Virus record (IMG/VR): IMGVR_UViG_3300021426_000170
Location: 1 to 35,518 of that record
Source of the DNA: a virus
Length of the DNA stretch: 35,518 nucleotides
Direction: 5' to 3' (one strand)
In this document: in pieces, positions 546-3,076 of the stretch
Layout: each line of letters begins with the position of its first letter
Position numbering within the stretch: position 1 is the first letter of the stretch
Notes under the pieces: generated by a model
The model's database searches: none
Told to the model about the DNA's origin: nothing
What the model saw: the letters and a program-made list of their open reading frames with translations, nothing else
Program-made: the position numbers and the translations under genes

Positions 546-584
546 AATGGCGATGATATTTTTATATCATCGCCATTTTTTTAT
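546..584. terminator. Bidirectional intrinsic terminator between the converging + gene (ends 534) and the - endolysin gene (ends 581).
   Basis: Inverted repeat aatggcgatgatat / atatcatcgccatt at 546-577 with a tttt loop. It is flanked by an A-run 537-545 and a T-run 577-584. Confidence 0.6.
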
Positions 585-2611
585 GGTTTTAATCGGATAA
601 TATATCCAACTTTATAGTTCGGCCACGAGAGTGGACCAATCCATTTTACGAAATGAGCACCTTCGCCCTTTTCTTTACAGAAGGCATGTCCAGAATCAAA
701 TGACAAACCATTACCAAAGTAAATACATGTATGATTGATAGTTACAAAAGTAAGAATATCACCAGGACAAAGTTTTCCTTCGTTCATAAGCTGTTTAGGA
801 GTTTTATTGCCTACTTTGATTAAGTCTGCATACTTGCGGAGATCAGCCTACGCATGACTATTTAACCAGCGGATGCCGCCTCCTTTTTGTCCATACCAGC
901 TGCATGCGGATGCGGGAAGTCCAGACTATTTCATTGCAAAAGCTACGCCGCCCATACAGTTTGTATATAACTTATTAGCTTTTCTTGTTTTCCAGAATGT
1001 ACTTTCACTTACATGTCCGCTGTTGTAATATCTCCAGTCTTTACCAGCTTTTATGTCATCTACTAACCATTGATTTAACCGAGCACATGCCGCAAGTAAT
1101 TTTTGCACTCTATTTAATTTTGGTTTATATACAACTGTTTTTGGATTTTTTAAATCATAAACTCTAAATCCCCAATTTTGATTAGCCTTGTTTTTAGCAT
1201 TACTTAAGTATTGATAAGCACCAAGTTGATATTGAGATTCAGACCATCTTCTACGAACAACATATCTATCTACTGGTGTTGCGGCGGGAGCCGTTGTTGC
1301 GGGCGCTTGGACTGGTGCCGCCGCAGCCGTTTTCACCTATGGATAAATTTGATTACCATTCTAATCATATGCTTTTAATCCTCTGGCTTTTGCTCTTGCT
1401 ATTGCATTAGCCTTAATTTCATAAGCATTATCCTGATTAATATATTTTCCATTTTTATAGTCTTGTGCAACTCTATACCAGGCAGTTTTTGGTTGCGGGA
1501 CTGGTGCTGTCGCCCCTGCCTCTACATCTAATTTTGCTAAATTATTTTCCTTAATAATACGAAGCACCTTCTCTTCATAATTAGGATCAGTGCAATATCC
1601 CTATGGATTACTAGCCGTTCCAGTTCCAATTCTAATTGCATGAATAACCGCTCCAGGATCTGTCATGCCCTTGATGCGATTATATTTATAACCTTTATTA
1701 TTTTTTACATGTAAAAGAAACATCTAATAATCTTCAATACAGTTTTTATAGTCTTTATAAACTCTAAAGTTATCATTTTTATAAATTAATTTACCATTAA
1801 CATATTCAGGAGTCATTTTAGAAAAACTTGTACCATTCCAAACTGTATAATTAGACCAGCTGCCATTGATTAAATCAGCTTTCATTCCAAGAAGATTATT
1901 TCGTTTTGTTAATTCAATAGCATCAGATCCTAATCCATAACCATTCTAAAGGCAGCACTGTGCGGCGACCACTGATGGTAAAATTTTTGTTTGTTTATAA
2001 AGATCTACACAGATTTTAGATACTTTATTAATAAAATCTTCTTTGCTTTGAGGGATACCAGAAGCTGCGGTTGTTGACGGTGTTGTACCTGCGTTTCCGC
2101 CCTTCACCCTCTCAAGAAATTCATTCCAAGTCCAAGATGTTTTATATTTATTATTATGAACATATGGAGCCGGACAAATCTTATTCACAATATCATAATG
2201 TCTTAATACATGATCTATTGGGATTTTCAAATCCTTCATTAATTTTTGGACAAGCCATACCGCGGCTTCTTGTGTCTCTTTTGTAAAATACCAATATGGA
2301 TCACTTGCTGATCCTTTGTTACCATCACAGTGACAACATAATTCAATGCTAATTGTATTAGCATTTCTTGCGTATGGATGTTTTTGAGCATATATGCCAG
2401 CGGTACCGACCGCCCATACAATTGCATCATGAGAGCATCTTTGGAAAATCGTTCCATCCCAATAAATTGTATAATGGGCACCAGTACCATTTTTTGATAA
2501 TTCATAATTTTGACCATCTACTCCTAAATAGTGAATGGCTATATACTCATGTGTATTTCCAAATTTTGGCACATATACTTCTGAAATTTTATTTACTATT
2601 TTATATGCCAT
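581..2611 (-). CDS. Bifunctional endolysin of about 676 aa. The N-terminal domain is a type-2 N-acetylmuramoyl-L-alanine amidase (PGRP-like), followed by a central linker/binding region. The C-terminal domain is an NlpC/P60-type peptidase.
   Basis: ATG at 2609-2611 with RBS AAGGAGA (plus strand tctcctt, 2619-2625). Track ORFs 1946..2611, 1361..1567, 926..1336 and 581..787 are all frame 1 and are joined only by in-frame TAGs at 1946, 1724, 1601, 1361, 1337, 926 and 848. The real stop is TAA at 581-583. Recognised motifs are amidase_2 (HYLGVDG...CPAPY) at the N-terminus and the C-terminal His motif GDILTF...HTCIYFGNG. Confidence 0.8.
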
Positions 2612-2662
2612 ATTTTTTTCTCCTTTTAAATCTTTAAATAAAAGGCAGAATTTACCCCGCCT

Positions 2663-3076
2663 TCATTGATTTCTCCTTTCTAATTTATGCTATTTAAATA
2701 GTCTAATATATTCATGATTAACACACTAACATGCAGTTTTGGTTCTTCCATTTTGAAACTATGGATTTTTTTCGCAATATTGTGTGTATTGTTCAATATC
2801 ATCTAATATTTGTTCAAAATAATCTTTGCTATGATCCACATTAGAATATAACTCATCTGAGAATCTTAAAATGCGGGTTCTTGCAGTTGTTGCTTTATCC
2901 TACTAAATAGATGCTTTTAATTTATCTATTTTTTCATTAGTTTCTGCAACAGCTTTTAAAATATCTTTTGTAATATCTTTTTTCTAATCATTTCTTTTTA
3001 TAATAAATTGTATAAAGGCAAAAATGCCGCCGCTCCCGATTAGGAGAGCAAGAATGTTGAGGATTGATATTTGCAA
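2663..3076 (-). CDS. Putative holin-like protein: one N-terminal TM helix (ISILNILALLIGSGGIFAFIQFII) followed by a charged tail. About 137 aa with 5 TAG codons.
   Basis: RBS GGAGGTGA is 7 nt upstream of TTG 3076; there is no ATG alternative. The frame-1 read-through crosses TAGs and ends at TGA 2663-2665, which is 52 nt upstream of the endolysin ATG. Position and topology suggest a holin. The start codon and C-terminal extent are uncertain. Confidence 0.4.

Follow-up and report, generated by a model that had tools for sequence, protein, structure and literature searches.

We analyzed a 35,518-nucleotide (nt) stretch of phage DNA, positions 1–35,518 of IMG/VR record IMGVR_UViG_3300021426_000170 (hereafter the window), whose lysis genes, an endolysin gene and the gene of a single-pass membrane protein upstream of it, carry multiple in-frame TAG codons. 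TAG is a sense codon in the late genes of this phage, and the clade to which the phage belongs most probably reads it as glutamate, which would be a new variant of phage stop-codon recoding. From the sequence comparisons below, we consider it likely that a phage tRNA(CUA) translates the TAGs of late genes as glutamate and that the resulting gate applies to the late genes as a whole. The window is part of the genome of a siphovirus-like phage, ~134 kb long and low in GC (guanine plus cytosine, 32.5%), that comes from a rumen or gut metagenome. A megablast search with 25 kb of the window returned no match among GenBank phages, and tblastn returned a weak match to Phass-1 alone. Related loci are designated by L-numbers (e.g., L002 and L193); they are IMG/VR stretches that were compared with the window, plus Phass-1 (L177).

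Reading TAG as sense increased the total length of open reading frames (ORFs) in the window from 26 kb to 41.8 kb and produced ORFs of 9360, 4938, 3309, and 3075 nt, whereas reading TGA as sense instead left the longest ORF at 2493 nt. Both TAA and TGA are absent from the TAG-containing frames, and TAA is the main stop codon of the phage. At least 138 sense TAGs lie in the late genes of the window, 85 of them in the tape measure gene (2.7 per 100 codons) and 23 in the gene for a 1641-amino acid (aa) tail protein, while eight plus-strand early genes have none in 1927 codons. The same in-frame TAG pattern recurs in dozens of related contigs. The features that mark a stop-recoded phage were all found, i.e., homology that continues across the TAGs, restored ORFs, a suppressor tRNA (in a relative), and early genes in the standard code. 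Recoding is a genome-wide property of the late genes and is not specific to lysis.

To identify the inserted residue, we used a codon test in which the proteins of the window, with TAG translated as X, were aligned to the TAG-as-sense ORFs of 24 IMG/VR loci recruited with the tail protein, and an empirical substitution model was derived from the same alignments. Across the window and the 24 loci, 898 pairs of TAG versus a sense codon were obtained at 433 sites, in which the partner was E in 38%, D in 14%, K in 12%, and Q in 10%; among the partner codons were GAA (258), GAG (80), CAA (71), and CAG (19). The pooled log-likelihood was −1965 for Glu and −2609 for Gln. Glu was also favored when only standard-code relatives were used (−418 versus −498) and when the window's own TAG sites were taken alone (−1189 versus −1555). 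In a hold-out control, each of the 12 sense codons tested was assigned its correct amino acid. The TAG spectrum fits that of GAG (E.44, D.15, Q.09) and not that of CAG (Q.53), and the preferential alignment of TAG with Gln that characterizes genetic code 15 was not seen. As judged from these alignments, the substitution pattern of TAG is that of a glutamate codon.

We extended the codon comparison to all pairs among 283 loci. The window favored Glu by 45 nats over 101 sites, and members of the Glu clade did so by 13 to 54 nats (L016, 54; L009, 54; L022, 47; L023, 46). More distant recoded rumen phages favored Gln (L099 by 44, L019 by 40, and L097 by 34 nats), as did Phass-1 weakly; these calls show that the method can return Gln and serve as an internal positive control. 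Conserved columns, defined by at least five partners and at least 80% agreement, gave the same division: E 16, K 3, D 2, G 2, and Q 0 for the window, E 220 and Q 21 for the Glu clade, and Q 39 and E 3 for the Gln clade. In the late gene that converges on the endolysin gene (46..534), five scored TAG sites gave E 4 and Q 1, and at the four with a confident, gap-free sense partner the majority was Glu at three and Gln at one. The E and Q content of early versus late genes was weakly informative on the meaning of TAG. At some early-region loci most residues opposite TAG were Leu; since the reverse complement of CTA is TAG, these signals were attributed to antisense ORFs and discarded as noise.

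The relatives themselves differ in their use of TAG. Besides L019, L097, and L099, the distant recoded rumen phages that score as Gln include L105, L080, L090, L104, L085, and others; they share RNA ligase or tail genes, so TAG has two meanings among related phages of one sample type. Loci L004, L005, L013, L014, and L025, whose tail protein is at most ~62% identical to that of the window, look standard-coded in the compared regions, which indicates that recoding was gained or lost within the family.

The endolysin has a TAG at a catalytic position. Its frame opens with an ATG preceded by AAAGGAG, closes with a TAA, and is broken by TAG codons alone, seven in 676 codons, exactly as counted in a preliminary description of this DNA. 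Database matches comprised 335 proteins at E (expectation value) ≤0.001, and in 27 full-length homologs the alignment is unbroken over all seven TAG positions, three of which lie within the glucosaminidase (GH73) match; the domains do align across the TAGs, a check that the preliminary description had proposed. Column 222 is Glu in 26 of the 27 homologs, and the lone Gln is the database translation of a 96%-identical sequence. TAG222 pairs with the Glu of FlgJ (2ZYC, AQAALETGWG), at which 3K3T, the same protein, has Ala, and it is GAA in L001 and L002. The LESG motif with its catalytic Glu is present in GH73 of the window only if TAG222 is read as Glu. The endolysin of L002, 79% identical to that of the window, has nine TAGs. 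None of the 16 TAG positions is common to the two genes; five of the seven window TAGs are GAA or GAG in L002, the window has GAA at three of the nine L002 TAGs, and at no one of the 16 positions does the other gene have CAA or CAG. This turnover indicates that TAG acts as an ordinary synonymous codon and not as a placed gate.

A candidate decoder was located in a near-identical relative by a DNA pattern modeled on the L102 and Phass-1 suppressor tRNAs. A tRNA(CUA) gene (64.7 bits with the Rfam tRNA model) lies at 1533-1606 of L193, that is, at ~88.9 kb of IMG/VR contig 3300021399_000007, whose tape measure protein is 99% identical to that of the window; this is ~10 kb to the left of the window start. 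It belongs to an array of tRNAs for Lys, Asp, CUA, Met, UUA, Leu, and Asn. The same tRNA(CUA) was found in six further clade members, and four contigs have both this type of tRNA(CUA) and the inference of Glu. Walking in the other direction within the close clade, from the right end of the window via homologs of RNA ligase and gyrase, did not find a tRNA(CUA). The tRNA has C1-G72, G2-U71, A73, a 3-bp D stem with U11-A24, and an 11-nt D-loop, GAGUGG(U/C)UUAA, which has the length of the D-loop in phage tRNA-Glu. Phage tRNA-Glu(UUC) shares its D-arm architecture and A73. By comparison, phage tRNA-Gln has U1-A72, G73, and a D-loop two bases shorter, a combination that tRNA(CUA) lacks, while the suppressors of L102 and Phass-1 are Gln-like (5′-terminal U, G73, and a shorter D-loop). 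Pairwise tRNA identities computed with free end gaps gave unreliable numbers and were ignored.

Other tRNA genes of the relatives are recorded here. A second suppressor-like tRNA, with anticodon UUA, lies at 2899-2971 of L193 (~90.2 kb of the contig; Rfam 51.3 bits); its D arm, GUC-AAAAGGUUAA-GAC, resembles that of Firmicutes tRNA-Glu, and it would read UAA as well as UAG, though TAA is the main stop of the phage. Many tRNA(CUA) suppressors are ~88-94 nt long (L177 12442-12532, which is that of Phass-1, and those of L195, L203, L204, L212, L241, L252, and others) and have a conserved ~20-nt insertion in the variable region with the consensus ...CCCTCTGAAGG... Class-I tRNAs of 74-76 nt with anticodon CAA (L223 1244-1319, L219 4660-4733, and L202 9483-9558) are called Leu by ARAGORN, yet they do not have the long variable arm of bacterial tRNA-Leu. 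The tRNA array of one clade member contains a transfer-messenger RNA (tmRNA) gene (L214 7283-7560; tag peptide ADNYTYQMAA).

We propose that the phage-encoded tRNA(CUA), whose gene would lie outside the window, reads TAG and inserts glutamate rather than glutamine. The glutamyl-tRNA synthetase (GluRS) of the host would charge it. Bacterial GatCAB amidotransferase needs U1-A72 and does not accept the additional D-loop base found in tRNA-Glu (PMC2811023); with C1-G72 in place of U1-A72 and extra D-loop bases, tRNA(CUA) may escape this enzyme. In a host that makes Gln-tRNA indirectly, tRNA(CUA) would then stay Glu-tRNA, and Gln-like suppressors would be amidated. Full-length lysis and tail proteins would have to await the suppressor tRNA, while the TAG-free early genes could be translated from the start, and tRNA supply might in this way time late-protein synthesis. 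That late proteins depend on amber decoding appears real, given the TAGs in the full-length proteins, the TAG-free early genes, and the tRNA(CUA) of the near-identical relative. Because TAG occurs throughout the late genes and in none of the early ones, such gating would be a property of the whole late program and not a lysis device.

The preliminary description had singled out the lysis genes as a TAG-gated cassette, so we examined both in detail. The endolysin has three enzymatic domains, Amidase_2, a GH73 glucosaminidase, and an NlpC/P60-like domain. Amidase_2, with fold matches to PlyG (2l47) and PlyL (1yb0) in a Foldseek search of the model, had been named correctly; GH73, whose relatives in the PDB are FlgJ, Auto, and AtlA, had been overlooked. 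The NlpC/P60 assignment holds at the level of fold and not by Pfam, where NLPC_P60 (PF00877) scored 14 bits (E 0.051) in the C-terminal domain, below the cut-off of 23. The model of this domain, with a predicted local distance difference test score (pLDDT) above 90, matched NlpC/P60 8er5_B (E 4.6e-3) and the Tae-type amidase 4kt3_A (E 1e-2), and the endolysin alignment shows no variation at Cys552 and His627. The two beta-alpha repeats between the catalytic domains are probably wall-binding modules: they are modeled with pLDDT ~90, the motif YRV..W.....Q.GAY is visible in the alignment, and a database listing gives PF05036 (SPOR) for related proteins.

The gene of the membrane protein ends 51 nt upstream of the endolysin start. 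It begins with a TTG behind GGAGGTG and has six in-frame TAGs (codons 31, 58, 59, 106, 117, and 129), one more than the five reported in the preliminary description, which had called it a single-transmembrane, holin-like gene. The helix and its conservation stand. A structure model of a 61%-identical homolog has a helix at residues 2-26 followed by a conserved three-helix bundle, and the protein, with its predicted helix, is a small transmembrane protein adjoining an endolysin, as holins are. Residues 34-130 match phrog_37604 (unknown function; E 3.9e-18), the sole PHROG match, and nine homologs of 103-131 aa cover the TAG-containing part, as does phrog_37604. The holin identity fared less well. 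No Pfam family scored above its cut-off, no holin family was matched in Pfam or PHROG, and the model had no PDB match below E = 1 in a fold search. Elsewhere, homologs stand directly upstream of a separate holin, which is followed by the endolysin (Phage_holin_5_2 in L284 and L285; Phage_holin_Dp1 in L001). Close relatives encode a Phage_holin_1 protein of 89-90 aa (L028 5173-5442 and L031 4222-4494), ~5 kb past the right end of the window, far from the endolysin and among TAG-poor genes; this gene ends ...KGK TAG TAA, and an SH3-like ORF with TAGs comes after it. Because no holin family was matched and relatives have separate canonical holins, we regard the membrane protein as a conserved lysis-cassette accessory of unknown function and not as a demonstrated holin.

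Several observations weigh against glutamate as the meaning of TAG. Codon 98 of the tail protein is a TAG on a Gln-dominated column (CAA or CAG in 12 of 19 relatives), and the tape measure genes of the window and a 99%-identical relative differ in one TAG, a change to CAG; L003, 99% identical, differs from the window by one TAG-to-CAG and one TAG-to-GAA change and is too similar to be informative in the codon test. Neither ARAGORN nor Rfam detected an RNA gene, tRNAs included, anywhere in the window, so the suppressor is drawn from the close relative. An isotype hidden Markov model (HMM) of phage tRNAs, with a cross-validation accuracy of 72%, placed tRNA(CUA) with neither Glu nor Gln; its top scores, ~30 bits, were for Ser, Met, Trp, and Lys. 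The variable loop of tRNA(CUA) has 5 nt, and Escherichia coli tRNA-Glu is without position 47. Codon 98 and the TAG-to-CAG change in the tape measure gene fit code 15, under which TAG would be Gln as in crAss-like, Lak, and Phass-type phages and the Glu partners would be conservative E/Q exchanges, as does the practice, in all literature found, of taking phage TAG as Gln; the database translation of the 96%-identical protein P0001 has Q at all seven endolysin positions. We nevertheless find code 15 very unlikely here: Glu is ahead by 45 nats at the window's own sites and by hundreds of nats in the pooled data, no conserved column of the window is Gln against 16 that are Glu, and Gln is what the method returns for other recoded phages that were compared. 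The tRNA(CUA), moreover, is without U1-A72 and G73, and Gln at the GH73 catalytic position is expected to inactivate the domain, as E-to-Q mutants lead one to expect. A mixture of Glu and Gln, through partial transamidation or two suppressor tRNAs, would be in keeping with the ~10% Gln among aligned residues, the few Gln-dominated sites, and the UUA tRNA in the close relative's array. However, genuine GAG codons have 9% Gln partners likewise, which leaves no Gln excess to explain, and the catalytic position argues that Glu is the main product. Ambiguous decoding seems improbable to us, although some minority insertion of Gln at TAG may occur.

The other two alternatives concern what the TAGs do, not which residue they specify. 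That they are real stops, in pseudogenes or with rare read-through, would agree with the lack of a tRNA in the window, but 138 in-frame TAGs with conservation running across them, frames otherwise free of TAA and TGA, and dozens of related contigs with the same pattern and a tRNA(CUA) in a relative speak against it. The ORF gain, the homolog alignments, and the related contigs effectively refute the standard-code reading, to which we assign next to no probability. The remaining possibility is that selection concentrated TAG in the lysis cassette as a timer or as a safeguard against premature lysis, as the preliminary description had it. The density of TAG is highest in the window in the membrane-protein gene (4.4 per 100 codons; P = 0.017, uncorrected, 16 genes), and Borges et al. 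reported that lysis genes are preferentially recoded in crAss-like and Agate phages (bioRxiv 10.1101/2021.08.26.457843). The P value, however, does not survive correction for the 16 genes, the endolysin (1.04 TAG per 100 codons) falls below the 1.51 of all late genes pooled (enrichment P = 0.89), and tail, tape measure, and other late genes carry equal or higher densities. TAG positions turn over freely among relatives, and in close relatives the canonical holin gene has TAG-poor neighbors and only a terminal TAG, before TAA. The full-length lysis proteins do need TAG decoding, as had been claimed, but the first endolysin TAG is at codon 222, and a 221-aa product with the entire Amidase_2 domain could be made without suppression. 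An amidase domain free of TAG and a "holin" of doubtful identity weaken the case for lysis gating, and we think a lysis-specific gate unlikely. The timer idea is plausible but had already been published, and it is not specific to lysis here.

Recoding of late and lysis genes by TAG, with phage suppressor tRNAs, has been described before (bioRxiv 10.1101/2021.08.26.457843; PMC9523058; PMC10607447), and a lysis timer, or delay of late, lytic proteins, is the hypothesis of Borges et al. (bioRxiv 10.1101/2021.08.26.457843). The gut phages of that study (crAss-like, Lak, Garnet, Amethyst, Topaz, and others; code 15) resemble the phage studied here in the in-frame TAGs of structural and lysis genes, standard-code early genes, a phage tRNA(CUA), low GC, and the proposed delay of late proteins. 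They differ in that TAG was inferred to be Gln there, while the substitution pattern here points to Glu, and in that lysis genes were preferentially recoded there (crAss-like, Agate) and not here. Proteomics established TAG as Gln in crAss-like phages (PMC9523058), and an occasional alignment of TAG with Glu in Lak phages was taken as a conservative change (PMC8346664). Phass-1, of the proposed Phassvirus (OQ749652; PMC10607447), is a ~136-kb siphovirus-type genome from a gut virome with a ~3100-aa tape measure protein, TAG in many late genes, many tRNAs, and tRNA-Sup(CTA) genes. It is distant (40% identity over 104 aa of the tail protein), with Gln-like suppressor tRNAs and, as noted above, a weak Gln call in the codon test. 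The literature that we searched, which did not extend to subscription-only sources, contained no report of TAG as Glu in a phage or bacterium, and an earlier description is possible. TAG as Glu is known from the nuclear code of peritrich ciliates (NCBI table 30), in which TAA and TAG both mean Glu. That code is eukaryotic and nuclear and reassigns TAA too, whereas here TAA stays the main stop and reassignment is confined to a virus and its late genes. The endolysin shares domain families, catalytic motifs, and wall-binding repeats between catalytic domains with the multidomain endolysins and autolysins of Gram-positive phages and bacteria (Amidase_2 plus GH73 plus NlpC/P60 or CHAP), and full-length homologs occur in Lachnospiraceae genomes (Parablautia and Marvinbryantia); it differs in that TAG encodes the GH73 catalytic Glu and in that the C-terminal peptidase is too divergent for Pfam.

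Taking these lines together, we lean toward a joint reading in which this phage clade uses a code with TAG as Glu, undescribed in the searched literature, through a tRNA that would be charged by GluRS and refractory to GatCAB. Related rumen phages with Gln-like suppressors would read Gln, so that the meaning of TAG would have diverged within one group and one ecosystem, and annotation with code 15 would mistranslate all late proteins of the Glu clade. If TAG is Glu here, phage stop-codon recoding comprises at least two codes and not code 15 alone. Code 15 pipelines would then mistranslate ~1.5% of the residues of each late protein in the Glu clade, and in the endolysin the error would fall on the catalytic residue. 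The preliminary description had proposed expressing the endolysin with TAG replaced by CAA or CAG, which would place Gln where GH73 has its catalytic Glu; the evidence favors GAA or GAG as the correct replacement in expression work. A simple route to new codon meanings is suggested for hosts with indirect Gln-tRNA synthesis, where acceptance or not of a CUA tRNA by GatCAB would decide between Glu and Gln. As to lysis, the window is a further example of recoded late and lysis genes and lends no support to a special role of the lysis cassette.

The layout of the window is given in Table 1. The minus-strand late block runs from ~28.9 kb to 0.58 kb in the order tape measure, tail proteins, membrane protein, endolysin, and terminator, and the last two genes of this long tail-to-lysis block are those of the membrane protein and the endolysin. 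The tape measure protein matches PF10145.

Table 1. Features of the window, with codon and residue numbers counted from the start of each gene product
Feature	Position	Strand	Description
Converging late gene, 3′ part	46..534	+	5 sense TAG
Bidirectional terminator	546..577		14-bp hairpin, T runs on both strands; closes the minus-strand late operon and the converging plus-strand gene
Endolysin gene	581..2611	-	676 codons, 7 sense TAG, TAA stop
C-terminal papain-like (NlpC/P60-like) domain, aa ~500-676	584..1114	-	Fold and invariant Cys552, His627
Endolysin TAG codon 588	848-850	-	In C-terminal domain
Endolysin TAG codon 562	926-928	-	In C-terminal domain
Two beta-alpha repeats and Ala/Pro-rich linker, aa 378-496	1124..1480	-	Between catalytic domains
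Endolysin TAG codon 425	1337-1339	-	In repeat/linker region
Endolysin TAG codon 417	1361-1363	-	In repeat/linker region
GH73 glucosaminidase, aa 201-358	1538..2011	-	PF01832, 62.8 bits (cut-off 30.2); three TAGs inside
Endolysin TAG codon 337	1601-1603	-	In GH73 domain
Endolysin TAG codon 296	1724-1726	-	In GH73 domain
Endolysin TAG codon 222	1946-1948	-	Catalytic-Glu column of GH73, motif LESG
Amidase_2, aa 20-149	2165..2554	-	PF01510, 56.2 bits (cut-off 26); TAG-free
Single-pass membrane protein gene, 137 aa ("holin-like")	2663..3076	-	6 sense TAG, TTG start, TGA stop
N-terminal hydrophobic helix of membrane protein, aa 2-26	2999..3073	-	QISILNILALLIGSGGIFAFIQFII; followed by KR; first TAG is codon 31
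Remaining late (tail) block	3350..28350	-	Sense TAG; tail genes of 1086, 1015, and 1641 aa and tape measure of 3118 aa
Early-type genes (n = 8)	29072..35518	+	Metallophos, Thg1-like, MVP_shoulder protein, Pyr_excise, and others; zero TAG

Inside the minus-strand late block, a plus-strand ORF of 163 codons (12826-13317) contains five TAGs, three of which fall on columns that are all Glu in 9-13 relatives. The window and two relatives together contain a tRNA-repair-like gene set (window 29072-31646 and 34821-35219; L028 1084-5081; L031 133-4145). It encodes an RNA ligase, a PNK-like kinase, a Thg1-like protein, and two or three phosphatases of the Metallophos family, and it is accompanied by a Pyr_excise gene resembling T4 endonuclease V. 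An 825-aa MVP_shoulder (PF11978) protein is encoded at 31698-34175 on the plus strand. Its gene uses CAG 26 times and CAA twice, the opposite bias to the late genes of the window (CAA 314, CAG 83), and this reversal suggests a different origin or expression regime.

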